Shown here in pieces: positions 7,808 to 35,535 of a stretch of 41,352 nt of DNA. The stretch comes from Nitrospinota bacterium. GTDB taxonomy: Bacteria > Nitrospinota > Nitrospinia > Nitrospinales > VA-1. Each line of letters opens with the position of its first letter. Within the stretch, counting starts at the first letter, position 1. A program made the translations under genes and the position numbers. The stretch is taken from assembly GCA_038108555.1 (NCBI GenBank), contig JAYNIA010000017.1, forward strand, positions 1-41,352. Direction: 5' to 3'. The notes below the pieces were generated by a model. The model had not been told where the DNA came from, made no database searches, and saw only the letters and a list, made by a program, of their open reading frames with translations.

Positions 7808-9019
7808 TCATTTTATATTTTGAAACATGTGGCCCAGTTTTTCCTGCTTGGTACGAAGATATTTCAGGTTATCCTCTTTCGGCTGGACTTCAATAGGAAC
7901 CCGTTCCACCAATTGCAATCCATAACCTTCAAGCCCAACAATCTTTCTGGGATTGTTGGTCATGATTCTAATTTTCCCCAATCCAAGGTTACGAAGAATC
8001 TGAGCCCCAATCCCATAATCTCTTAGATCCGGTTTGAATCCCAATTCCTCATTGGCCTGAACAGTGTCCTTTCCTTCATCCTGCAAAGCATAGGCTTTTA
8101 ATTTATTAACAAGACCAATGCCTCTTCCTTCCTGATACAGGTACAGCAACACCCCTGTCCCCTCTTGCCCAATCATCTCCATAGCTTTATCTAATTGGTC
8201 CCCGCAATCACATCTAAAAGAGCCAAAAACGTCCCCCGTCAAACATTGCGAATGCACTCGAACCAAAGTAGGAACATCTTTATTGATCTCGCCTTTTACC
8301 AGGGCTAAATGAACTTCATCATTTAACAAGTTTTTGAAAACTACAGATTGAAAACTACCATATTGGGTGGGCAGAACTGTGGTAGTGACTTCTTCCACCA
8401 ATGCTTCCTTCATGAGCCGGTATTCCGCTAAATCCTTTACCGTGATCATTTTCAGGCCGTGCTCCTTGACAAACTCAGTCAATTGCGGAACCCGGGCCAT
8501 CGTTCCATCTTCATTCATAATTTCACAGATAACACCATAAGGGTTTAATCCTGCGATCCGGGCAATATCGACAGAAGCTTCGGTTTGTCCCATTCGTACC
8601 AGAACACCACCATCCTTCGCTCTTAAAGGAAAAATATGCCCCGGTTTTACGAGGTCTCCCTTAACAGTTGCCGGGTCAATAGCCACCTGAATGGTATGAG
8701 CCCGGTCTGCGGCTGAAATTCCGGTGCTGATACCATGACGTGCATCAATGGACACCGTGAAGGGAGTTTCAAAAGCTGACTGATTATCTTCAACCATCAT
8801 TGAGAGACCCAAATCCCTGGTTCTCTCCTCTGTCAGGGTCAAACAAACTAATCCCCTTCCAAAGCGAGCCATAAAGTTGATAAGTTCAGGTGTAGCCTTT
8901 TCTGCGGCAATCATCAGATCGCCCTCATTTTCGCGATCTTCATCGTCAACAATGACGATCATTTTCCCCTGCCGCACATCCTCTATAGCTTCTTCTATGG
9001 TACTGAATACTTTTTCCAT
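7808..9019 (-). CDS. ribBA: Bifunctional DHBP synthase / GTP cyclohydrolase II
   Basis: RibB motifs [10 protein letters not shown] and TGISAADR; RibA motifs [29 protein letters not shown] and TNNPRK. Confidence 0.97.
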
Positions 9020-10772: not shown

Positions 10773-11588
10773 TTATCGGTTGCGACGAAGCACATCCACC
10801 ATATGTTTCCGAACGCTTCCACGCTGATAAACAATTTCAATTCTACGATTGGTGGCCCTGGCTTGCGGACTATCATTGGGAACTTTTGGACGATATTGTG
10901 CAAAACCTTCGATAGACAATTGGGTGGGTGGGAAACCTGCCTCCACTAATTCCCGGGCGACTTCAGCAGCACGGGCTGCAGATAACTCCCAGTTGGAGGG
11001 AAACTGTTCGGTTTTGATAGGAACATTATCGGTATGGCCTTCGATTTTCACATCGTAATTGAACTGCTGCAATAAATCGAAAACCTGTTTGATAATATTG
11101 TTACCGGCAGGAGTCATTCGGGATTTACCGGCTGGGAATAAAACGGTATCAGAAAGAGTAATGATTGCACCTCTTTCATCCGAGGAAACATCCACCTGCC
11201 CTGCCAGTTTGTTTTTAAATACGAATTCTTCCACTTCCGAGGCGATTTCTTCCACCTCTTTGGCGACCATCGCACCAACTTCATCGACCGCATGAATGGT
11301 ACTTTCATCCAACACTTGTTCTTTGATTACATCCAGGCCTTCCCGTATTCCTGACTCGGGAATTTTTTCCTGCCCCAAAGCATCTCGAAGTGAAGCCTTG
11401 ATTTGCTTCCATTTGTTTTCCTCAATGGAACCCATTGCAAACAGGAGAATGAAAAAAACCATAAGAAGGGTAACGAGGTCAGCAAAAGTCATTACCCATG
11501 CAGGTGCCCCCTCGGGACACTCGTGTTCCTCCTCCTCTTCCTCTTCTTCTGCTTTTTTCTTTTCTTTTTTAGCTTCTTTTTCGGCCAT
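10773..11588 (-). CDS. motB: Flagellar stator protein MotB/PomB
   Basis: TM segment WVMTFADLVTLLMVFFILL with the conserved Asp; OmpA-like domain (GHTD, NWELSAARA, NRRIEI). Confidence 0.95.
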   Translation of the reverse strand: MAEKEAKKEKKKAEEEEEEEEHECPEGAPAWVMTFADLVTLLMVFFILLFAMGSIEENKWKQIKASLRDALGQEKIPESGIREGLDVIKEQVLDESTIHAVDEVGAMVAKEVEEIASEVEEFVFKNKLAGQVDVSSDERGAIITLSDTVLFPAGKSRMTPAGNNIIKQVFDLLQQFNYDVKIEGHTDNVPIKTEQFPSNWELSAARAAEVARELVEAGFPPTQLSIEGFAQYRPKVPNDSPQARATNRRIEIVYQRGSVRKHMVDVLRRNR

Positions 11589-11594
11589 GGCTAA

Positions 11595-12396
11595 TTATTT
11601 TTTCTTTCCGCCTTTTTTGTCTTTTCCGTCCCCTTTCTTATCTTTTTTACCATGATAGGTATCGAGATAGTTTTCCAATACATCCTGCATGAACCTAAGA
11701 TTCACACCTTTTCGAATATACCCGATACCCTCCAGAATAAGTTGCATTTCAAGGGACTCTGTTGCACTTCTACGTTTCAGTTTAACAGTCATGGGAATAA
11801 AAATCAGGTTGGCAACCACCGCACCATAAAATGTTGTGATCAGTGCGATTGCCATTTTGGGACCAACGGTACTAACATCCGACAAATCCGAAAGCATCTG
11901 AATCAGACCGATCAAGGTTCCAACCATTCCAAATGCCGGGGCAAATGCGCCCATCTGATTGAATATTTCCCAACCATCCTTGTGTGCATTCTGTAACTGC
12001 TTCACTTCCCTTTTCAAAAGGGCATTTACTGTTGCCTCATCTTTTCCGTCTACCGTCAGTTCCAAACCTTTTTTAAGAAAGTCGTTGTCTATTTCCTTGA
12101 GCTTGGACTCGATGGCCAGCACGCCCCCTTTTCGCGCCACATTACAAATTCCCACCATGCTTTCAATAAGCTTGTACTGGTCACTTTGTTTGACCATAAA
12201 AACTCGCATGAACAACCCCATCACCTTCATCACCTCGTTGATGGGAAAAGCAATCAGGGTTGCTGCAAGAGTCCCCCCAATTACGATCATGGCGGAAGGA
12301 ATGTTTATGAACAGATCCAGACCACTGTTCATTAAAATTGAGGCGAGAACGAGTCCCACACCAGCAATTACACCTATTAAGGGAGGCTAAATCCAT
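11595..12396 (-). CDS. motA: Flagellar stator protein MotA/PomA, with a 1-nt frameshift near 12381 (intact ORF 11595-12359)
   Basis: MotA motifs IV.GGT, ARKGGVLAIE, APAFGMVGTLIGLI.ML and ALITTFYG. The canonical start MDLAS at ATG 12396 is out of frame by one base with LIGVIAGVGLV; deleting one base near 12381 gives a 266-aa protein. Confidence 0.9.
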
Positions 12397-12400
12397 TTCT

Positions 12401-13762
12401 TTAAGACGGTTGCTTTATTTTGATGACCCCTGAAATAGGATCAACGTTATGAAATTTTAAAATTTTATCCAGTGTTTCTTTATCCAACACCGTTCCTTTT
12501 CTTAAAAGGTTGATTCCGGATGCAGAAATTATATCTACTGCCAACTCCATTCCTTCAGTTAGTGCAAATACAGAACACTCCATGGTCGGTACTTCTTCCG
12601 TTTGACCCATTTGAGCTACGTAATCCTGCAAGGTTCGCATCACCAACTCATCAAAAATCATCCCCGTTTTTTCATCCATCTTAGCAAGGATTTCTTCGTT
12701 GGAGAGGTTCGGGTTGGCCATCTTATTATGATCGAAATAACTTGCGGCGGAGATTATTCGAGAGCCCATGGGAATACGATCTCCATACATACCATCCGGT
12801 GAACCAGTGCCATCAACATTTTCATGCAGATGCCGGATTATTTCCGCAACCATTTCAAAACCCGGAAACTCTTTTAAAAGCATCTCACCTACCAGGGGAT
12901 GATTGGTTTTAGGTTTGTCTCTTATATCATCGAGCTGCTCGTCGTTTGTTGCTTCTTTTCTCTTCTCAACGGTAGGCATAGCCACAATGCCCAACTCATG
13001 GAGTCGTGCGGCTGATTTAACGTTCCTGATTTGATAATCCGTCAGGCCCATTTTTTCTGCGATATAAACCGCAGCTTCGGTAACTCTTTCAGAATGGCCG
13101 CGATGTTCGGTCTGATGCAGTTCAATGATGGTCGCCAGTAAACCTTCTGTAGAATCAAATCGGCTGGCCAGTTCATCAACCATTGAAGAAATTTGCTGGT
13201 TTTTATTCTCCAACTGATCATTTAACTCTGTCATTTCCTTCAGGCTGGCACCCAGACGTCTTTTATCATTTCGCAACTCTTCATTTAAGGCCGCCAACTT
13301 TTGGTGAAACTGCTTTAATTGACCCAAAGAAGCTTCCAACTGTTTATTTTTTTCAAAAACCGCATCATTCAAGTGGGCCACTCGCATAACGAAATTGACT
13401 ACAAATAGCAATTCGCCTTTTTTAAGTGGTTTGGATAAATAGGCATCTGCCCCGGTTTCACTTGCTTTGATTGCATTGTCCTGCTCGGAATCATAAGCCG
13501 ACATGAGGATAACTGCCGACTGCAATTTTAATTCACGTACCTTCTGGCAAACTTCGAATCCATCCATTCCAGGCATATGAATATCGCAAAGAATAATGTC
13601 AGGTTGAACTTCCCGCATCATTTTCAACCCTTCTTCACCTGTACTCGCTTGAAAAACTTCGAGAACCTGGGGGCCAAATGATTTACTCAGTATCTGTTTT
13701 ACTATCATCTGCAAAGTGCGGTCGTCATCGATACTGAGGAATTTTTTAGCGTGCTTGTTCAT
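12401..13762 (-). CDS. Response regulator: REC, coiled coil, degenerate HD-GYP domain
   Basis: Intact receiver motifs (DDD, D.HMPGMDG, SA, KP). HD-GYP-like region has HSERV, LHELG, HP.VG, LHE..DGTGSPDG and IPMGSRII. Confidence 0.88.
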   Translation of the reverse strand: MNKHAKKFLSIDDDRTLQMIVKQILSKSFGPQVLEVFQASTGEEGLKMMREVQPDIILCDIHMPGMDGFEVCQKVRELKLQSAVILMSAYDSEQDNAIKASETGADAYLSKPLKKGELLFVVNFVMRVAHLNDAVFEKNKQLEASLGQLKQFHQKLAALNEELRNDKRRLGASLKEMTELNDQLENKNQQISSMVDELASRFDSTEGLLATIIELHQTEHRGHSERVTEAAVYIAEKMGLTDYQIRNVKSAARLHELGIVAMPTVEKRKEATNDEQLDDIRDKPKTNHPLVGEMLLKEFPGFEMVAEIIRHLHENVDGTGSPDGMYGDRIPMGSRIISAASYFDHNKMANPNLSNEEILAKMDEKTGMIFDELVMRTLQDYVAQMGQTEEVPTMECSVFALTEGMELAVDIISASGINLLRKGTVLDKETLDKILKFHNVDPISGVIKIKQPS

Positions 13763-13985: not shown

Positions 13986-16376
13986 TCAATCCTCAGCCTC
14001 AATTTCTGTAAAACGAGGACCGGAGACACAGCGGAGGCCCACCGCCAAATACCTTTCGGAAGGATCAAAAGAGTTTCGGAAAAAACATTTAGCATGAACC
14101 AGATAATTCATCCAAGAACCTCCTCTGACAATTCTTTGGGTCGAATGTTTTGAAGCATTCCATTGCATGCACCATTCCCACACATTTCCAGCCATATCAA
14201 AACATCCGTAAGGAGACATTCCAGGTTCCATCTCAGTTACTGAACTGGTTTTGCATTCCATAAAATCACAGGTATTGGCAAACCCTTTTTCATATCCCAT
14301 CGCTTCTCCCCAAGGGTATACCCTGCCATCCGTTCCTCTCGCTGCTTTTTCCCATTCTTTTTCGGTGGGCAAACGCATTCCCAGCCAAAGAGAAAAAATA
14401 ACAGATTCAAAATAATTAATACCAATGACCGGTTGATCTTCCTCCCAGGAGTAGGAAGGGAATCTCAATTTAAATTGCGGGTCAAACTGCATATACAACG
14501 CATTGGTTACAGGAAACTTCATGATGGCAAATTCTTTCATATCGATTTGATCTTCCTCATCCTCCTCTTCCTGATAAATAAACTTGCCTTTGGGCACGGT
14601 CACCATTTCTCCATGTTTTTTGATTCGGGAAAGAGTGACCTGATTTCCATCTTTGGATTCATTAAAAAACGCCTGCAAACATTCAAGTTTCCGGATGGGC
14701 GCAAAATCATAATTATCCAGCAGATCATGAAGATTCAATCCGTTTTTAAACAGAACCAGCTCGAAAACACTGAACAAAATACGGCTATCCCGGTGTTCAC
14801 GTAATAACAACCTATCCAACAGGGCTTGCAGATAATCCTCATCATTAGTTTTCCAGACATCTTGCACTCGGACCAGTCGACAAGGTTTGAATTGCGGAAG
14901 AGCTTCATTACACTGATACTTGAGCAACTGGCGTATGAGCAGGTTTTGCCCTTCAGGGAGTTCTTTAACTTCCGCCAGCGAGTTGCCCGCCAACATAACC
15001 GCTCCTTCTTCGATGAAAACATCGAAGAGGTCTTTTCCGCATACCAGTCCAGCTAAAATTTTAAAGGCTTCATGCCATTTTTCGTTCCCACAATTTTCTC
15101 TGACTGTATTTTCCCACTCCGGCATTTTAGCAATGTGCCGTGCGGCGAAATATTCCTGATAGGAAGGATGGCAAAATTCCCAGCGACGAGGGGTTTGTTG
15201 AATAATCCCTTTCCAACGAGCAGAAATTTCATCCTCTTGTATCAATAAATCAAATTTATTCTTATCAATTACTGATTTTTCGTAACCCGGTTCCTCCTTT
15301 TGGAAACGCTGGATCTTTCCAACCAGCATTTGCTGGAAGGAAATTTCTGCTAATTGGCCCAACCCTTTTTCCAATTCCCCTTCTTCAATCTCCGGACTCT
15401 GATTCAATACCAATTGCTTAAACCATTGCTCATAGATTTCAGCCCTGTTTTCCAGCCCTTCCAGTTTTTCATTATCGGAAAGGCTTCGTATCATTTTCAG
15501 TAAAATAGGTGTCAGGGTTAGTTCTGGTGTATAAGCCGCAAGCTCCTTGATGATATTGTTTTTGGAAGCATCGCCAAGGTAAACACTGGTCTCTTCAGGT
15601 GATAGAGGCTGGAAAGCCATTTGAAATGCGGCCCCCTCTCCCCGCTTAACCACAGCATCAGTTGCCAATGCCCCAAACTCAAATTTTCGGCTTGCCAACA
15701 GGACAAAGTTACTTTTAAACGCGTTGTCTTCTAAAAAAGAATCCACAAAAAATCGAAACCTGTCTTGAGGATGCAATTGATCAAAGCCATCGAGCAAAAA
15801 CATGAATTTGCTTTGATTGAAGATAGAGCCTAAAGTACCCCGTAGAAGATCCTCTTCCAGAATCAGATCCGGGTTTTCTTCTTTTTCTAGAAGGATCACA
15901 CTGACAATTTCATCCTGAACAGTTTCGATGAAACTTTGAAATCCTCCACCTTCCGGTACATTGCCCAAATGGAAATAAACAGGAAGTGAATAAATTTGAT
16001 GGGGAGGTGCATCAAGAAGCTCTTCAAGATACCGCATCAGGAATGTTGTTTTTCCCATTCCGGAATCCGCATCCAACATAAACTTCAAACTATTTATGTC
16101 GAGCAATTTTTCATTGATATGGCGGGGAGCGGGAAAAACAATTTCAAGAAGGCTTTGCCGATGGCTGATTGGGTTGGTATCTAACAGGACCCGAGGTATC
16201 AGAGTTTTGTTCCTTCTCCCCTTCCCCAGGTTTTCGTTCAACCACATCGTCACCTTGTTCAGCTGGTGTTTGCGGTAGGTTTCAATGACCCATTCTATTG
16301 ATTCTTCCGGTCTTTCCGGGGCAACAGGTAAATTTTCACCCTCTGGCGAGGGAACCAGTCCTTCTATATCATCCAT
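13986..16376 (-). CDS. NACHT-type STAND NTPase with C-terminal FGE-sulfatase (SUMF1) domain
   Basis: Walker A ADSGMGKTT, Walker B FLLDGFDQ, sensor-1 LLASR, P.LL, and winged-helix motif FCHPSYQEYFAAR. C-terminal FGE motifs FPVTN, RLPTEKEWEKAARG.DGR.YPWG, SPYG.FDMAGNVWEW, RGGSW and GLRC. Start is ATG 16376 or TTG 16382. Confidence 0.88.
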   Translation of the reverse strand: MDDIEGLVPSPEGENLPVAPERPEESIEWVIETYRKHQLNKVTMWLNENLGKGRRNKTLIPRVLLDTNPISHRQSLLEIVFPAPRHINEKLLDINSLKFMLDADSGMGKTTFLMRYLEELLDAPPHQIYSLPVYFHLGNVPEGGGFQSFIETVQDEIVSVILLEKEENPDLILEEDLLRGTLGSIFNQSKFMFLLDGFDQLHPQDRFRFFVDSFLEDNAFKSNFVLLASRKFEFGALATDAVVKRGEGAAFQMAFQPLSPEETSVYLGDASKNNIIKELAAYTPELTLTPILLKMIRSLSDNEKLEGLENRAEIYEQWFKQLVLNQSPEIEEGELEKGLGQLAEISFQQMLVGKIQRFQKEEPGYEKSVIDKNKFDLLIQEDEISARWKGIIQQTPRRWEFCHPSYQEYFAARHIAKMPEWENTVRENCGNEKWHEAFKILAGLVCGKDLFDVFIEEGAVMLAGNSLAEVKELPEGQNLLIRQLLKYQCNEALPQFKPCRLVRVQDVWKTNDEDYLQALLDRLLLREHRDSRILFSVFELVLFKNGLNLHDLLDNYDFAPIRKLECLQAFFNESKDGNQVTLSRIKKHGEMVTVPKGKFIYQEEEDEEDQIDMKEFAIMKFPVTNALYMQFDPQFKLRFPSYSWEEDQPVIGINYFESVIFSLWLGMRLPTEKEWEKAARGTDGRVYPWGEAMGYEKGFANTCDFMECKTSSVTEMEPGMSPYGCFDMAGNVWEWCMQWNASKHSTQRIVRGGSWMNYLVHAKCFFRNSFDPSERYLAVGLRCVSGPRFTEIEAED

Positions 16377-16484
16377 ATTCAAACTATTTTATTCGCTTAT
16401 ATAATAACGGAGATTGTCAAATGCAATTTCCGCCCTTAAAATAACCCGCATTTTTAATACTATCATATTGCATTAAAGCAGCCG

Positions 16485-17126
16485 ATGATTCCCCTGAAAG
16501 ACGAAAACCCCACCCGCAACTTCCCGTTTCTAACGTTGCTTTTTATTGTCATTAATATGGCAGTTTTTATTTATGGGGTCAATTTACCTGTCCATCCCAG
16601 CGTACTTTATGCAGATTACGCTTTGGTCCCCTCTGAACTACTCAATAATCCTTTATCCGTTTATCCTACAGTTTATACATCCATGTTTCTTCATGCAGGT
16701 ATCTGGCATCTTGGTGGAAACATGCTGTACCTTTGGATTTTCGGAAACAATATTGAAGATGTATTGGGGAAATTCCGTTTCGTTTTATTTTATTTTGTCT
16801 GTGGGACCCTGGCTGCCCTGGGTCATATCGCCACGGATATGGATTCCCAGATACCCATGGTCGGCGCAAGTGGTGCTATTTCCGGCATACTGGGCGCTTA
16901 TTTGATTTTATTTCCCTTTGCGAAGATAAGGACGTTTATCTTTCTGGGATTTTTCTGGACCATCACCCGTATCCCTGCAATTGTTTTGTTATTGATCTGG
17001 GTCATGCTACAAATCTGGAACAGTGCTGCTTCTCAAACTGGGGGCGTCGCCTGGTTTGCTCATATAGGAGGTTTCGTCGCCGGACTTCTTCTTATCCTGC
17101 CTTTTAAAAATTTTGCAAAACATTAG
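16485..17126 (+). CDS. Rhomboid family intramembrane serine protease
   Basis: MIPLKDENP start, SMFLH..WHL.GNM.YLWIFG.NIED, catalytic GASG and AHIGGF. Confidence 0.95.
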   Translation: MIPLKDENPTRNFPFLTLLFIVINMAVFIYGVNLPVHPSVLYADYALVPSELLNNPLSVYPTVYTSMFLHAGIWHLGGNMLYLWIFGNNIEDVLGKFRFVLFYFVCGTLAALGHIATDMDSQIPMVGASGAISGILGAYLILFPFAKIRTFIFLGFFWTITRIPAIVLLLIWVMLQIWNSAASQTGGVAWFAHIGGFVAGLLLILPFKNFAKH

Positions 17127-20271: not shown

Positions 20272-20330
20272 AGTAGTAAGGTTTTAACCCGTTTTTTCCG
20301 TTGAAATATAAACAAACTTTATATTCCCCC

Positions 20331-23300
20331 ATGACCCGGAAAAATTTCACTCTAAAAGACATTCAACATCTCAGCGACCACTATTCCCAATCCGGAAGCA
20401 GGGAACCTGTTTTGTTGTTTCAAATGGTTCAGGAGTTTTATCCTTCCGGCCAGGCTCCCGATACGGTTCCACCCATTCCTTTTGAGACCCTGATTAAAAA
20501 AATCCAGGATTCGGGTAAATTTCCTTCACTACCTGTGAAAAAAGAAGAACAAGAACCCTGGTTGAATTCCCTAAGAGAAAAGTTAAATGGCGAATTACTG
20601 GCTTTAATGTCTGACCGGGGAAACCCGGCTTCCCTTTCTCTCGATAGTAATTTCAATTTCATTCAATTTGAGGGAACTGACGCTCCTCCTCCCCAAATTG
20701 AAGCCACGGCTCAAAATCGAAAATTTAAGGAATCAGAAATAACTTTCAACCTTCCCGACGAACTCAGAGAGGAATTTGAAAACCAACTGCAAAGACTTAA
20801 GGAAAAAGAAGAGCTTGCCAACAGGCAAATGAGGGAAATTCTGGAAAAGGAAAAGCACCTGGAAGAAGCCAAGGTAAATATGGAGAAAGAAACCTCAGAA
20901 TTCCGATTGCAAATTCAAAAACTAAGGGATGAAGAACAAAAACATATTGAACAGGCAAAGAGTCAATCTGAAAAAGAAGTTTCCAGAATGCGTCAGGAAT
21001 TGGAGGAGGCTCAAAACGAATTGAACAAACTCCGAGGCGAAAAAAACCGGAGTTTAACTGACTATGAAGCGAACCGCTCCCGCCTGGATACGGATTTTAC
21101 ACGAAGGGACCAGATTTTCAGGGCCAAGTTTGATGAAATGATGGAACTCATGGAAAAACTGGCCAAGGAAGAAAAGGAAATACACAACTACAAGGAAAAA
21201 GTTTATAAGTCCGCCAAAGAAAAGCAGGTTCAACTAAAAAGGACCTCTAACCAACAGGCAAAGAAAAATCAGCAGCTGCTAAAACTTTCCAAATCTCTTG
21301 AAAAAGAAAAAAAACTTTTCAAATCAAGGCTCAAGGAAGAATTCGACACTAAAAAGGAAGAGTTGGAAACCGAATACCAGCGTCGGTCGGAATATCACAT
21401 CCGCAGACTTGAGGAGTTTGAAGCGGACGAGGAACGCCTGGGCCGGGAAAATGAAAAGTTGAGAATTAGGGAACAGGGTCTTGCGTTGGAAGCTCAACAA
21501 AAAGCCGATGAACAAACTAAAAAAAGGCTGGCTGAATTAGAAAAATGGGAAAAAGAAATTTCCAGAAAACAAAAAATTCTTAACAAAGAGGAAAAGGAAA
21601 ATAATCTGGAAAAAGCCGCCCTTCTTAAAGAAATGAGTGGAATTGAAGGAGGCAAGTTTGCCGTCGATCAAATTAAAACTGCCGCGAAAACCCAGGAAGA
21701 CCTGCTAAAAAGAAAACGCAAGCTTTACAAGGCAATGGAACAAGACCGACCTAAAGTCGAAGAAGAGATAAAAGAAAAGCTCCAGGAACTCGAAGACGAG
21801 TATGAAAAGGAACAAGCAAAGTTGGCCGAAAAAACCGAGACCCTTCTTGAAGAACAAAAACGCCTGCGCGAAAAAGAAAAAATTCTTTTAGAAAGGGAAA
21901 CCCATGAGCTTAAAACCATGAACCAGGAGTTTGAAGAGTTTAAAAACTCCCTGGAGGTGGGACAAATTGAGAAAGAAATGGCCCTTGATCGGAAGGAAGA
22001 AGAACTGGAAGCGGAAGAACAAAAAATCCTAGAGTTTCAAAAGCAGCAAATGGAAGAAGAAAAGGCCAGTCGCGAAAAAAATGAGGAAATAGAAGCGGAA
22101 ATTATGGCTGAGCTACAGGAAATTCAACTGGTCAAATCAGATGTCTTGCAGCACCAGGTAGAAGTTAAAAACTTTCTTGAAGACTTTAAAACTACCTACA
22201 ACCAAATTCTTCAATCTCAAGGATCTGAATACGAAGAATTTAAAAAACGTATTGCCAATATGGAAGAAGAAGCGGTACGACTCACCTCCAGCCTGAAGGA
22301 CAAAGAGAAATTAATTACGGAAGAAACAATAGAAGCTGAGAAAGTTCTGCAGGAAAGATTAAAACACCGCGAATCTATGGTGGATGTTATGGAAAAAGAT
22401 TTGCGCGGCCGAGTAGAAGAGTACCAAAAATTCGTCCAGGAATTGGCTGATGTAAAAAAATCCATGAATGAAGAAGATGAATCCCGCAAAGCGGAACTTT
22501 TAGAAAGCCTTTCTCATTACGAAGACAAATTGACCCATCTGGGAAAAGCCTTTGAAGAACTCTCAGAAGCGTTTCAGGTAGAGAAAGAAAAAGGACAGAT
22601 CGAAATCGTTCCGGAAGAAGACGAGAAAAAACCTCTTGAATATGATGATGCTCTGGCAAAAGCCGAGTGGCCCCTGGCTATTAGACAACGGCTGGGGACC
22701 GCTACCTCCAGTGAGCAAAACGCTCATATCACCGAATACCTGTACAAGTTCAGTGATAAATGGGATGAATGGATAAAGATCCCCTCCGGGAAGTTTGTTA
22801 TGGGGCATCCGCGGCAAAAAGATTCCGCTCCGCATAATGAAGTCGAAATTGAAAAATCGTTTTTGATGAAAAAGTTTCCCGTCACCAATGTCGAGTTTTT
22901 CAAATTCGTAAACGAGACCCATTACAAAACAGAAGCAGAATCACTTATTGACGCCATTGTATTTCATCATGGCGATTTGGCATTGCATGGGAGTCATGAA
23001 CCCAGAACTTCCTATTCGAATCCCAGTCTAACTCCGGAAAAAAACGCATTTTGGCTTTGCCCCAACGGTCAACCTGACTCCCTGTATGGAAAACACAACC
23101 ACCCGGTAACTCAGGTCACATGGAATGATGCTAAAGCTTATTGCAAATGGAAAAGTGAAACTACAGGTCAGACCATACGCCTGCCCTTCGAAAAAGAATG
23201 GGAGTTCGTAGCCAGCAATTTTGGCAAAACTTCGCCTGACCAGTTTTTCTCGGATGAAGATAGAGTCGTGGAGTTCTGCAATATAGAAGAAACCGGTTTT

Positions 23301-23576
23301 TTGGGAACCTTACCTGTGGACCATTTCCCCGAAAACGAATACTTTGGTGGCATCGCGGATCTTTTTGGAAATGTATTTGAATGGGTTGAAGATGACCATC
23401 CCAAAAGCCACCGCTCAAATGGCCGGAATGGCTCTTCCAATGGATTGACTTATAAAATTGCAAGAGGCGGAAGCTTCATCACCCATTTCAAACATATTGC
23501 ACCCTGGCGTCGCATCTCTTTTATAAAAAGCTATTGCACTTCCTTCCTCGGTTTCCGTACGGTTTGCGAAACCTAG
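20331..23576 (+). CDS. Large coiled-coil protein with C-terminal FGE-sulfatase (SUMF1) domain
   Basis: About 600 aa of E/K/Q/L-rich helical sequence, followed by IPSGKFVMG, FPVTN.EF.KFV.ET.Y.TEAE, HPVTQVTWNDA.AYC.W, RLP.E.EWE, GNVFEWV, RGGSF and GFR. Start is ATG 20331 or TTG 20301. Confidence 0.87.
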   Translation: MTRKNFTLKDIQHLSDHYSQSGSREPVLLFQMVQEFYPSGQAPDTVPPIPFETLIKKIQDSGKFPSLPVKKEEQEPWLNSLREKLNGELLALMSDRGNPASLSLDSNFNFIQFEGTDAPPPQIEATAQNRKFKESEITFNLPDELREEFENQLQRLKEKEELANRQMREILEKEKHLEEAKVNMEKETSEFRLQIQKLRDEEQKHIEQAKSQSEKEVSRMRQELEEAQNELNKLRGEKNRSLTDYEANRSRLDTDFTRRDQIFRAKFDEMMELMEKLAKEEKEIHNYKEKVYKSAKEKQVQLKRTSNQQAKKNQQLLKLSKSLEKEKKLFKSRLKEEFDTKKEELETEYQRRSEYHIRRLEEFEADEERLGRENEKLRIREQGLALEAQQKADEQTKKRLAELEKWEKEISRKQKILNKEEKENNLEKAALLKEMSGIEGGKFAVDQIKTAAKTQEDLLKRKRKLYKAMEQDRPKVEEEIKEKLQELEDEYEKEQAKLAEKTETLLEEQKRLREKEKILLERETHELKTMNQEFEEFKNSLEVGQIEKEMALDRKEEELEAEEQKILEFQKQQMEEEKASREKNEEIEAEIMAELQEIQLVKSDVLQHQVEVKNFLEDFKTTYNQILQSQGSEYEEFKKRIANMEEEAVRLTSSLKDKEKLITEETIEAEKVLQERLKHRESMVDVMEKDLRGRVEEYQKFVQELADVKKSMNEEDESRKAELLESLSHYEDKLTHLGKAFEELSEAFQVEKEKGQIEIVPEEDEKKPLEYDDALAKAEWPLAIRQRLGTATSSEQNAHITEYLYKFSDKWDEWIKIPSGKFVMGHPRQKDSAPHNEVEIEKSFLMKKFPVTNVEFFKFVNETHYKTEAESLIDAIVFHHGDLALHGSHEPRTSYSNPSLTPEKNAFWLCPNGQPDSLYGKHNHPVTQVTWNDAKAYCKWKSETTGQTIRLPFEKEWEFVASNFGKTSPDQFFSDEDRVVEFCNIEETGFLGTLPVDHFPENEYFGGIADLFGNVFEWVEDDHPKSHRSNGRNGSSNGLTYKIARGGSFITHFKHIAPWRRISFIKSYCTSFLGFRTVCET

Positions 23577-27853: not shown

Positions 27854-28732
27854 CTAAGGCTTCATTCGCCTGAATATCAAATGCGAACCATACTTTAACC
27901 GGTATTTTGGGGGGAAATTTTTCATGGGCAAAGGCCCACCTGTTTTTCCCAGAAAATTTTGAGTACAACGCGATTTATAAATCAAGTCATATTCCAATTC
28001 CCTGAGCGCCCCAATCAAATCATCAATATTCAAAAAACGTGAACGCACCTTTTTCCCATAGAAATTTTGAGTCGTAATAAAAGTGGGAATATTCCCTGTG
28101 GGAACATCTTCCAATATTAAAAGTTCTGGCTGGTAACCAGCAAATTTAGACAATAAACCCTTCCAATCTGGAATGTATTGAAGAGAGCTTCCAGCATGAA
28201 CTATATGAACGGGACGGGACAACTCAGGAAGCTCTTCGTAAAAAAACAATTTCGGAAAGTCCTCTAATATTTCTTTAGATAGATCGCATATTGCTTTAAC
28301 CTCAACAATATGGAATTCGACTCTTTCCGGTTCTTCCAAAGCAGAAACTAAAGGAAAATAACTGGCGGCCATCCCTCCCCCAAAATCCAAAATTCGCAAA
28401 TCCCCTTTGGTTGTTGGAAGAAGAATCCCACCCACCAAGGACAAAACATAGTCTTGGGTAGAAGAAGCTAAAGATACGACTTTTCCAGAATGATAGGCAG
28501 CAAGGGCACTTTGGGCTTGGCGGGCAACTTTATTTATCCAAATCTTTCCTTCAAGGACATCATTGTCCTGAGGGGCTTCCTCCCATGAATCGTAAATCCC
28601 ATCCCAAACATTTAGGGCACCTGACAATACCAGATATTCAATAAGGGGAGACAGGTAAGAAGAAAATTTAGAGGTAAATACAATTTCTATTAACTTATGC
28701 TTTAACCTCAGCAAACTCGAAACCTCATTCAT
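27854..28732 (-). CDS. Putative SAM-dependent methyltransferase (TIGR04325/LIC12133-like)
   Basis: W.G.Y.SWEEA, ILDFGGG, IVE, SSLQYI and T.Q motifs, typical of this glycan-locus methyltransferase family. Confidence 0.75.
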   Translation of the reverse strand: MNEVSSLLRLKHKLIEIVFTSKFSSYLSPLIEYLVLSGALNVWDGIYDSWEEAPQDNDVLEGKIWINKVARQAQSALAAYHSGKVVSLASSTQDYVLSLVGGILLPTTKGDLRILDFGGGMAASYFPLVSALEEPERVEFHIVEVKAICDLSKEILEDFPKLFFYEELPELSRPVHIVHAGSSLQYIPDWKGLLSKFAGYQPELLILEDVPTGNIPTFITTQNFYGKKVRSRFLNIDDLIGALRELEYDLIYKSRCTQNFLGKTGGPLPMKNFPPKYRLKYGSHLIFRRMKP

Positions 28733-33346: not shown

Positions 33347-33618
33347 TTGAGATTCTTATTCCTCAATATCCCCAGCTACAATCTTCGACCGAATACTTTT
33401 ATACACTTTCTCCAATCATTTCACAATTGATGCACCTAAAAAGTTTCCTCCAGCAAAAAAGGTCTATGGTTTTCCAACTTCCTGAATAATATAACATCTG
33501 AAAGTGGAGCAAAAGATAAAAGAAAAACCATAAAAAACCCTTAAAATAAGGTACTATTCGAAAGCCTTAGAGTATTTTCAAAATCCTTTTGAAAAAAAGA
33601 AAAATCCGGAGCACTTTA

Positions 33619-35535
33619 ATGACCCCAAACAACAAGGGCAAACTGGTTTTACTAAATTTATTTGCGGGGATATCCATATTTTTTGTTTTGATTGCCCTAA
33701 GACTGCCAATCCTCCTTAACTCGGATTCTCTTTTAAACACAGATGAAGCCTTAATGGCTTATGAAATACTCGATTTATACAACGGTGGCCCCTTCTTTTT
33801 TTATTACAGTGTGACCACCTATTTCGGCGTTTTAAATGGACTGGCGGCTATTCCCTTTTATAAACTCTTCGGAGTCAGCCCCTTGGCATTTAAACTCCCC
33901 GCCACCTTTTTTTATACTTTGTACATATTGTCCACCTATTGGCTGGCAAAAAAGATTCTACCCCAAGCAGCAAAAACAGTAATTTTACTTATGATTTTTA
34001 CTTCACCCGCTGTTTGGAACTTAACTTCATTGAACTTCGGGCTGGGGTTAACTTGTTTTTTGGGAAACTTGGTTTTTTTGACCTTTTATAAAGCTAAAAA
34101 AACCTTGTGGTTAAATTCTCTAAATGTCTTCCTGCTGGGGTTTGCTTCCGGTTTCGCAATATATTCCTTCACCTATACAATTATTTATATTGGCTCAATA
34201 ATTGTTCTGCATTTTTTATCCCTAAAAAAATGGAATACTTTACGAAAAAATTTTTCTATAAAAAACATTGCAGCTTGGTTTTTTAAAAGGAAAGAAAGCT
34301 TGCATAGAATCGCAGGAATACTGGATGCCATTATTTTATTTTTTATTCCTATAGTTTTATTCTCTTATGTATTCGGCGGATTCGGTATCGATATTGCGCG
34401 CTATTCTATTTTGCAAAGCAATGAACTCCACAAACCTTTGCAGCAACTATTAATAATCATCATCATTCGAGCCTGTCTTTATCGGCAGGATATATCAGGA
34501 ATTTTTAGTTCGGGCAAGTCCTTAATTTTATCAATCGACCCCTTGATCAGACGCTCCTGTCTATTTGGGATAATAGGGTTTATTCTGGGAATTCTTCCTC
34601 GCATTCTGAGCATCCTGTCGGGTCAAATCACAAGAGGAGGACAGGGGTTCGATGTCGATTTCGTTCCCACAAACCTAGCTTTCCATATTTGGGAATTGAT
34701 TATCTGGTTTATACCGGAAACTCTTGGGCTCAGGGAACCTATCACCCAATTGTTTCAGGGTAGGTTTGACATCCTTTCTCTCTCACAGGGACTATTAGCT
34801 GGCTTAATCATCATTCTTCTGGGCAAGGCAGCAATTTTCTTTATTTCCCCAAGAACTAAAGAAATCAAAAACTTTATCCTTTTAAAGCAGGTCGATTTTA
34901 ATCCAGCTCAGTTTTTATTTGTTCTTCCTGTTTTACTATGTGCTGCTGTAATAGCAAGTCAAGGGCCCCCTGCAGTACGGTATTTACTTCCACTACATGG
35001 AGTTGTTTCTATTTGGACTGCGATTTACCTTCAAAAAGTACTTTCTGAATCCAAGGGATTATTTGTCTTTGCCCTGGTCGCCTGGTGCCTATTTAGCGCG
35101 ATAGGAATTTATAAATCCTATTTAACATCAGGAATTGTCCATAACCTCTCAATTCAAAAAAGGCCCAACCCTATTCTAAATGTTATAAATTTCTGTAAAA
35201 AAAATCAGATTTCGCATGCTTATTCAGATTACTCCACCTCAATTTTGACCAGCTTTTTGAGCAAAGGCGATGTAAAGATGGCTGAATATACTAAAAATAT
35301 TTTCCTTGAAAAAATAAAGAGGGAGCTAGCGGGTGAAGAAAAATTTGCAATTGTTGTTAATGGTAATAGTAAGGACCTGAACATCTACCAAAGGTATTTA
35401 AATAAAAACATGGCCAAATTTTCGCAAGATATCGTACAGGATAACAACGGCACAAACAGGAAATTTTATATCTTTTCCAATTTTGAAGGGGATTTAAAAA
35501 CTATCGACTCCCTTCGTTCTCTAATTTCAAACTAA
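33619..35535 (+). CDS. Polytopic membrane protein, probable GT-C fold glycosyltransferase (ArnT/PMT-like)
   Basis: DE motif in the first loop (NTDEALMA) after TM1, many TM helices, RYLLP near the C-terminus and a soluble tail with YSDY. ATG 33619 has a GGAG RBS; the ORF is open from 33589. Confidence 0.65.
   Translation: MTPNNKGKLVLLNLFAGISIFFVLIALRLPILLNSDSLLNTDEALMAYEILDLYNGGPFFFYYSVTTYFGVLNGLAAIPFYKLFGVSPLAFKLPATFFYTLYILSTYWLAKKILPQAAKTVILLMIFTSPAVWNLTSLNFGLGLTCFLGNLVFLTFYKAKKTLWLNSLNVFLLGFASGFAIYSFTYTIIYIGSIIVLHFLSLKKWNTLRKNFSIKNIAAWFFKRKESLHRIAGILDAIILFFIPIVLFSYVFGGFGIDIARYSILQSNELHKPLQQLLIIIIIRACLYRQDISGIFSSGKSLILSIDPLIRRSCLFGIIGFILGILPRILSILSGQITRGGQGFDVDFVPTNLAFHIWELIIWFIPETLGLREPITQLFQGRFDILSLSQGLLAGLIIILLGKAAIFFISPRTKEIKNFILLKQVDFNPAQFLFVLPVLLCAAVIASQGPPAVRYLLPLHGVVSIWTAIYLQKVLSESKGLFVFALVAWCLFSAIGIYKSYLTSGIVHNLSIQKRPNPILNVINFCKKNQISHAYSDYSTSILTSFLSKGDVKMAEYTKNIFLEKIKRELAGEEKFAIVVNGNSKDLNIYQRYLNKNMAKFSQDIVQDNNGTNRKFYIFSNFEGDLKTIDSLRSLISN

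Follow-up and report, generated by a model that had tools for sequence, protein, structure and literature searches.

An apparently effector-less NACHT-type protein with a conserved lectin-fold tip is a core gene of Nitrospinales

Introduction

Why would a bacterium keep, among its housekeeping genes, a NACHT-type NTPase that is joined to a lectin-fold domain and carries no recognizable killing domain? The question is raised by a gene on the minus strand at positions 13986 to 16382 of a 41,352-nucleotide stretch of DNA from a Nitrospinota bacterium (assembly GCA_038108555.1, contig JAYNIA010000017.1; the whole stretch is hereafter called the window). Its product, here called the NACHT-FGE protein, consists of a NACHT-type STAND module, a helical linker and a C-terminal FGE domain of the C-type-lectin (CLec) fold that lacks the catalytic cysteine pair; our analysis confirmed that the protein and these domains are real. 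We show that the gene is a single-copy core gene of the order Nitrospinales with largely vertical inheritance, and that the protein has an intact P-loop, sensor arginine and winged-helix motif, no effector and a conserved tip. On balance, we cautiously favor the view that it is an effector-less NACHT-type switch that has been domesticated, binding a fixed host ligand through its lectin tip and serving as a scaffold or regulator under nucleotide control, not as a killer.

The hosts in the Nitrospinales are the most abundant known marine nitrite oxidizers (PMC10839748). The gene marks this lineage and fulfills a core function in it that is unexplained, and databases name its product as a non-heme iron enzyme ("SUMF1/EgtB/PvdO family nonheme iron enzyme").

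Results

The open reading frame (ORF) was first described in an earlier note made from the DNA letters, and all motifs quoted there are present in its 798-amino acid translation, which begins at a TTG codon. Translation probably begins at the ATG at 16376 (residue 3), and the deposited protein has 796 amino acids. The protein is predicted to be cytoplasmic; no signal or membrane segment was found in it (Kyte-Doolittle maximum of 1.46 at window 19, with no hydrophobic segment in the first 60 residues). There were no tandem repeats within the gene, and a promoter scan was uninformative (10 sites against 6.2 ± 2.5 expected by chance). Pfam matched NACHT to residues 106-238, just above the gathering cut-off (29.8 against 26.7 bits), and FGE-sulfatase to residues 592-786 (E 7.7e-39). 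An AlphaFold model was built from 40 orthologs (predicted local distance difference test, pLDDT, 78.9; predicted template modeling score 0.81), and its best Foldseek matches were NLRC4, NOD2 and NLRP3 (E 1e-12 to 1e-9). As this model was unreliable over most of the FGE domain, a second one was made for residues 455-790 (pLDDT 86.6). The Pfam match and the NLR fold matches bear out the NACHT-type STAND identity that the note had proposed. PADLOC, run on the whole protein, returned nothing meaningful (best E 0.017).

The nucleotide-binding domain (residues 99-260; 15603 to 16088, with all coordinates of the protein's parts on the minus strand) was matched by Pfam NACHT in 40/40 orthologs and was modeled with a pLDDT mostly of 80-97, save for one loop at 65-70. 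It is followed by HD1 and a winged-helix domain with an HxSFQEY motif (residues 261-420; 15123 to 15602), aligned to NLRC4 via HKSFQEY (E 9e-6). Next come HD2-like helices with a conserved LLKYQC motif (residues 421-505; 14868 to 15122), which lie inside the range aligned to NLRP3 and match the beginning of the HEAT region in P0212, a NACHT relative considered below. The last part before the FGE domain is a family-specific linker (residues 506-590; 14613 to 14867), which is helical with a pLDDT above 90 in the model; it was barely covered by the fold search, and an Atlas search with residues 430-590 gave no match scoring above 0.78.

Motif conservation was assessed across 41 orthologs. G110, K111 and T/S112 of Walker A (residues 105-112; 16047 to 16070) are fixed in 41/41, as are R232, Q409 and E410, whilst H405 is conserved in 40/41. 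R232 (15687 to 15689), which we take to be the sensor-1 arginine, is also found in 121/122 relatives. The first Walker A position, 105, is Ala in 34 orthologs, Ser in six and Thr in one. In Walker B (residues 194-202; 15777 to 15803), D198 is present in 40/41, Gly or Ser at 199 in 41/41 and an acidic residue (Asp or Glu) at 201 in 41/41; position 202 drifts (Gln 20, Arg 8, Leu 7, Glu 4, Thr 2). The features of STAND NTPases, namely a GK[TS] P-loop, the Walker B Asp and a winged-helix extension after the AAA+ core, were all found in the sequence and predicted fold. NACHT domains have been defined by D[GAS]hD, with a small residue after the Walker B Asp and then an acidic residue (10.1101/2022.07.19.500537). 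D[GAS]hD is present here, together with a NACHT-type segment before the NTPase; the second acidic residue of the hDE signature is lacking, position 202 being Gln in this protein and Glu in 4/41 orthologs. Judged on its motifs, the protein is classed as a NACHT-type (DQ variant) STAND, not as a canonical-signature NACHT member.

A profile of residues 22-585 was searched against 1.84 billion proteins, and the family and its fragments came first, followed by generic NACHTs at 125 bits or less. We defined the 126 nearest non-family NACHTs as the 131 rows from P0141 on, minus five short sequences taken as family fragments. At the first Walker A position, covered in 97 of these relatives, Ser occurs in 43, Ala in 37 and Gly in 7; the final Walker B residue is Gln in 100 and Glu in 17 of 123, with the caveat that the relatives were ranked by the family's own profile, which favors such Walker residues. 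The earlier note had reported an Ala in place of the first Gly and DQ in place of DE as deviations; both are present, but neither is unusual, as they are common among the nearest NACHTs. For the same reason, we rejected a degenerate NTPase as a mark of domestication, variant Walker residues being the norm in this neighborhood. Most of the 48 relatives scanned with Pfam were NACHT-HEAT proteins, several having trypsin or phosphoesterase N-termini, and 83/122 had at least 180 residues before the Walker A called by regular expression. An FGE domain was found in 4/126. Ten relative clusters were looked up; they had one or two members each, and eight of the ten lie outside the family.

The earlier note had seen about 95 residues ahead of the P-loop and proposed a sensor that signals in trans or through a new small N-terminal domain. 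In the first model, residues 30-505 aligned to NLRP3 134-676 (8zem; Z 18.1, root-mean-square deviation 5.9, 389 aligned) and residues 25-479 to NLRC4 94-574 (Z 16.7), where the ranges give end points only. Residues 29-98 (16089 to 16298), which presumably correspond to a FISNA-like segment, superpose on the beginning of the NACHT modules of NLRP3 and NLRC4. We therefore discarded a new N-terminal effector: the N-terminus is made up of a low-complexity tail and the NACHT module's own pre-NTPase segment. The tail (residues 1-28; 16299 to 16382) is Pro/Glu-rich and poorly conserved (0/30 near-invariant columns), with 27-37 residues before W31 in 37/41 orthologs. The relatives P0147, P0212 and P0154 have the same pre-NTPase segment. 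In P0147 and P0212, 150-180 further residues come before the shared helix and "YVEP(V/I)L" strand, and those of P0147 match HNH nuclease effectors. Since residues 29-98 belong to the NACHT module, and relatives carry further residues before the same segment, the effector position is empty in the NACHT-FGE protein.

The note was right, on the other hand, that no N-terminal effector is recognizable; only approximately 28 residues precede the NACHT module. Over 40 orthologs, residues 22-100 gave no meaningful family match (best E 0.047), and there was no match to them among PDB sequences. No adaptor domain was found in the orthologs. A search for a longer fused form returned a single unrelated match among 6299 candidates, which is weak evidence. 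Among the neighboring ORFs of at least 100 amino acids in 40 loci, fetched from across the genera, we found no recurring effector. Amyloid-signaling systems of the Bab/Agp type are marked by a short motif that a protein has in common with the effector encoded next to it; here the tail is Pro/Glu-rich, and no such neighbor recurred among ORFs of that size.

Distribution was determined with residues 1-561 as the query, and the counts include fragments at contig ends. The gene was present as a single copy in 96/101 other Nitrospinales genomes and in 51/51 of those that are at least 90% complete, as the five genomes that lack it are only 57-78% complete. As controls on the same 101 genomes, ribE was found in 92 and the adjacent response regulator in 64 (at E ≤ 1e-80). 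The gene was not found in 18 genomes outside Nitrospinales, where two weak matches proved to be other NACHT-FGE proteins. Other NACHTs in Nitrospinales are sporadic, and the genome that carries the NACHT-FGE gene under study encodes no other. No relatives were found in viral contigs, and no phage-borne copy was confirmed among 65 pattern matches. The gene tree recovered 13/13 multi-genome genera at a support of 1.0, as well as families f1 and f2. Because kin are not independent, the distribution counts describe one ancient retention. At loci L060-L065 (genera g16 and g19) the orthologs have 25-55 additional residues, located near the HD1-winged-helix boundary.

Selection was estimated as dN/dS, the ratio of nonsynonymous to synonymous substitution (Nei-Gojobori), on 16 non-independent pairs out of 105 same-genus pairs, those with a proportion of synonymous differences (pS) below 0.55. 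This gave 0.080 overall, 0.18 for the tail (the highest of all regions), 0.06 for the pre-NTPase segment, 0.041 for the FGE domain and 0.025 for the last 45 residues (745-790), so that the tip is the most constrained part. In a comparison with the two adjacent genes, the value was 0.079 for the NACHT-FGE gene (13 pairs), 0.080 for the rhomboid gene (10 pairs) and 0.100 for the response regulator (6 pairs). The earlier note had proposed to determine whether the gene is core or patchy and how the FGE tip evolves; it is core, and its tip is under strong purifying selection. Core distribution, vertical descent and purifying selection together back the domesticated role at which the note had hinted.

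The FGE-type C-type-lectin domain (residues 591-787; 14022 to 14612) is the most conserved part of the protein, with 65/200 near-invariant columns against 18/165 in the nucleotide-binding domain. The best fold matches of the second model were tied between TvpA, the variable protein of a diversity-generating retroelement (DGR) (2y3c; Z 21.3, root-mean-square deviation 2.7, 199 aligned), and PvdO (Z 21.0); the domain also matched FGE, CalU17 and EgtB. The catalytic cysteines of FGE are spaced as in the human pair, C336/C341. In agreement with the note, which had reported that the paired catalytic Cys is missing, there is no Cys-x4-Cys after the GGS motif and a single Cys lies between GGS and the next conserved Arg, as read from the sequence without a displayed residue-level FGE alignment.

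The strongest non-orthologous FGE matches within Nitrospinales led to locus L098. The DGR there (L098:5859-12390) has two targets, a NACHT-FGE and a KAP-FGE protein, besides its reverse transcriptase and a template repeat at 8098-8209. Comparison of these targets with the template showed that 17/17 and 19/22 of the mismatches lie at template adenines. The DGR makes 17 of the 36 tip codons variable. The equivalent tip of our protein (residues 752-787; 14022 to 14129) is conserved: at the codons variable in L098, N759, Y760, N770 and F772 are invariant in 40/40 orthologs, V762 is kept in 39/40 and D773 in 37/40. In an FGE tree (FastTree, 52 sequences, 202 columns), the orthologs (support 1.0) were sister to the two L098 targets and three similar proteins (0.898), and stood apart from the stand-alone FGE proteins of the genome under study. 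No reverse transcriptase was found in the genome that carries the gene (92% complete), and on that ground we rejected a DGR active on it. Judged by sequence comparison, the tip resembles a DGR target that has become fixed. Loci L097, L099 and L100 carry KAP-FGE and TPR-FGE proteins with similar FGE tips, which may be remote targets of the L098 DGR.

The gene lies among housekeeping and motility genes, much as the earlier note had described. Upstream is a divergent rhomboid protease gene (16485 to 17126, plus strand), the nearest labeled upstream gene in 36/40 loci; it is a usual neighbor to which no link has been shown. Downstream is a gene for a response regulator with an HD domain, resembling cyclic di-GMP phosphodiesterases (12401 to 13762, minus strand), ahead of motA and motB. 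It is also a usual neighbor rather than an obligate partner, being the nearest labeled downstream gene, on the same strand, in 34/40 loci, with ribD in that place in 5/40. The block of response regulator, motA and motB (window 10773-13762, between the NACHT-FGE gene and ribD) is missing from 5/40 loci, and the response regulator is split in L068 and L049.

A defense scan covered 67 neighboring ORFs of at least 200 amino acids at 19 of the 40 loci, all of them without a match among the window genes. A clear defense system lay within about 6 kb of the gene in 1/40 loci (Gabija, L039). A defense island was rejected, as the scan gave only this Gabija pair, an ankyrin-repeat and a caspase-like protein (L044) and domain-level matches (L060, L061). 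The gajA-gajB pair (L039:9522-12103) is inserted beyond the rhomboid gene. At L044:3360-5357, a 666-amino acid protein with a signal-peptide-like start combines caspase-like and FGE domains; its gene is convergent with the NACHT-FGE ortholog and near the ankyrin-repeat gene.

FGE-type domains are widespread in these genomes. In the genome under study, 29 ORFs have one, most with starts that resemble signal peptides by eye and none with Cys-x4-Cys after GGS, and its Nitrospinales relatives have 10-41 first-look FGE candidates each, an order-wide expansion. The window itself encodes a second such protein (20301 to 23576, plus strand; 1091 amino acids), with a long K/E-rich coiled-coil-like region, a C-terminal FGE domain and no obvious signal peptide. 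Searched with its N-terminal 300 residues, this coiled-coil-FGE gene was found in 28/61 genomes, in all four families and often beside the same MFS gene; in L040 it has shrunk to a short ORF. Elsewhere in the window, two ORFs among sugar-nucleotide genes, at 27854 to 28732 (minus strand, 292 amino acids) and 33589 to 35535 (plus strand, 648 amino acids), had no Pfam match at E 0.01.

Discussion

The domesticated switch that we favor would, by analogy with other STAND proteins, rest in a closed state on ADP. Ligand at the tip would lead to nucleotide exchange, opening and self-assembly. Nucleotide binding may matter more than fast hydrolysis, since position 202 drifts between Gln, Arg, Leu, Glu and Thr. 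Genomic evidence suggests that the ligand is a fixed component of the host, and the output may be a non-lethal protein contact through the pre-NTPase segment or the helices of residues 421-590, with the partner encoded elsewhere. The near-universal single copy, the lack of a killing domain and the conserved lectin-fold tip make it likely that the protein descends from an anti-phage NTPase-FGE sensor and is now kept for an everyday job in the cell. In such a history, an N-terminal effector would have been lost and one variant of a hypermutable tip fixed in the Nitrospinales ancestor. The nearest NACHT modules, mostly those of HEAT-repeat proteins and some with trypsin, HNH or phosphoesterase domains, support this origin, as does the grouping of the FGE domain with the L098 targets.

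Several observations pull the other way. An apparently effector-less NACHT-FGE protein also exists outside the family: P0154, of 744 amino acids, is collinear with ours (26% over 663 columns) and, as available, starts at the pre-NTPase helix; a search for its genomic context returned no locus. Conservation averages 0.79 at the DGR-variable positions, slightly below the 0.87 of framework positions, and residues 775 and 778-780 vary. The FGE tree is small, with a sister group chosen from top matches, and the gene tree does not separate families f3 and f4. With the NACHT target of L098, our protein aligns only over the FGE domain, therefore its two halves may differ in origin. The whole block around the gene is highly syntenic, so synteny shows no functional link. 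Lastly, we found no ligand, partner, expression or activity for the NACHT-FGE protein.

The main rival explanation, which we regard as rather unlikely, is that the protein guards the cell against phage as a core component, sensing an invariant phage protein or damage to a host protein, oligomerizing and stopping the cell, either alone or via an effector in trans. It owes this standing to two NACHT proteins that also count against a domesticated role: bNACHT01 protects against phage without an effector (10.1101/2022.07.19.500537), and bNACHT11 binds at least five phage activators via one conserved surface (10.1101/2024.12.17.629029), so that phage sensing can go together with a conserved sensor surface. 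The nucleotide-binding motifs are all intact, the closest modules come from conflict-type proteins, and STAND-FGS proteins have been proposed as sensors of invaders (PMC8195603; PMC10907252). A guard is harder to reconcile with a single copy that is retained at the level of a biosynthetic gene and in the same place across four families, when the other NACHTs of the order are sporadic and neither an adaptor domain nor a recurring effector among the neighbors was found.

The neighbors suggest another role, in which the protein would regulate the response regulator and the MotAB stator and thus pass a cytoplasmic cue to motility or attachment. Their usual adjacency on one strand speaks for this; yet in 32 of the 34 loci 155-503 bp separate the NACHT-FGE gene from the regulator, and where ribD is the next labeled gene instead, the NACHT-FGE gene is intact. 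The regulator is missing at the same threshold in 37/101 genomes, including 11/11 of genus g8, where the NACHT-FGE gene is present in 10/11. We consider such control improbable, because the gene persists where regulator and stator are lost. It is also quite improbable that the NTPase gates an enzymatic or metal-binding FGE domain, as the database names and the fold matches to FGE, PvdO, CalU17 and EgtB might suggest. C727, C738 and C766 are conserved in 40/41 orthologs and C785 in 39/41, but C766 and C785 also occur in the L098 DGR targets. In addition to the missing Cys-x4-Cys, the NCBIfam scores are far under their cut-offs (EgtB 72.8 against 360, SenA 58.6 against 420, OvoA 22.4 against 400, PvdO 20.6 against 500).

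A bolder version of the domesticated switch can be put forward tentatively and with some doubt. The protein may be a DGR-hypermutated immune receptor whose specificity was fixed and whose killing domain was lost, and which became essential and a signature of Nitrospinales when the order arose, monitoring or scaffolding a host protein complex specific to this group of nitrite oxidizers. If true, bacteria would have a counterpart of the animal NLRs that serve outside immunity, and this would be the first STAND-CLec protein for which a single ligand could be found. If the gene is essential, it would clearly exemplify the conversion of an immune receptor into a core gene throughout an order. An invariant tip should mean one ligand, so a pull-down could reveal a ligand for this class of sensor and the way in which binding at a lectin tip leads to the opening of a NACHT switch.

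Comparison With Known Systems

The architecture is already known; what appears undescribed is its effector-less, invariant-tip and order-wide core behavior. NACHT-FGS proteins have been named "antigen receptor, FGS type", effectors being nearly general outside clade 14 (10.1101/2022.07.19.500537), and STAND-FGS systems with adaptors and DGRs include a bDLD3-bearing pair in nitrospinae of a different architecture from ours (PMC8195603). FGE sensors are also treated in PMC13581612, where non-defense STAND clades are interspersed with defense ones. Bioinformatic work has described STAND-FGE sensors as variable conflict proteins, and CLec-STAND proteins were experimentally uncharacterized as of PMC10907252. 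We found no account of the Nitrospinales NACHT-FGE family in the literature, though supplementary tables such as Table S1 of 10.1101/2022.07.19.500537 and the files of PMC13581612 may list it. "Nitrospin" is absent from seven supplement files of the latter, mostly source data, and NACHT is unmentioned in the available passages and two supplement files of PMC10839748.

The NACHT-FGE protein shares with the STAND-FGS and DGR-linked NACHT-CLec sensors (PMC8195603; PMC10907252) a NACHT-type NTPase and one C-terminal FGE/CLec domain, and the FGE domains group together. It differs from the STAND-FGS systems in having no N-terminal effector or adaptor. Their tips are diversified, often by a DGR, whereas its tip is conserved (dN/dS 0.025) and no reverse transcriptase was found in its genome. 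They are variably present, with several versions per genome, whereas it is single-copy and core across an order. With bNACHT01 of clade 14 it shares the lack of an N-terminal effector and an intact Walker A lysine. However, bNACHT01 has a short, fast-diversifying SNaCT tail and was found beside CBASS (10.1101/2022.07.19.500537), whereas our protein has housekeeping neighbors and a 200-residue FGE domain under strong purifying selection, the constraint on its tip being the reverse of that on the bNACHT01 C-terminus. The NACHT-HEAT proteins with a DQ Walker B (P0212, which is NPV14510.1, and P0147) have the same pre-NTPase segment and Walker A and B variants, with a best full-length match of 125 bits; most such proteins differ in their long N-terminal extensions and HEAT arrays.

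The FGE, EgtB and PvdO enzymes share the FGE-type CLec fold and differ in their catalytic Cys pair and in curated cut-offs that our protein does not reach. LypABC of Caulobacter crescentus is likewise an NTPase system of immune type that has been recruited to a host role outside defense islands, but it comprises three genes with peptidases, is toxic, occurs in 4/11 Caulobacter species and is not core (PMC13236601). According to the predicted model, the animal NLRs NLRC4, NOD2, NLRP3 and NLRP2 have the same fold of nucleotide-binding domain, HD1, winged-helix domain and HD2 (Z 16-19). Our protein lacks their CARD, PYD and LRR domains and is 12-16% identical to them, and a shared fold shows no function. 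By analogy, NLRP2 and its relatives in oocyte scaffolds, as given in structure entry titles, illustrate how a non-immune NLR may serve as a scaffold.

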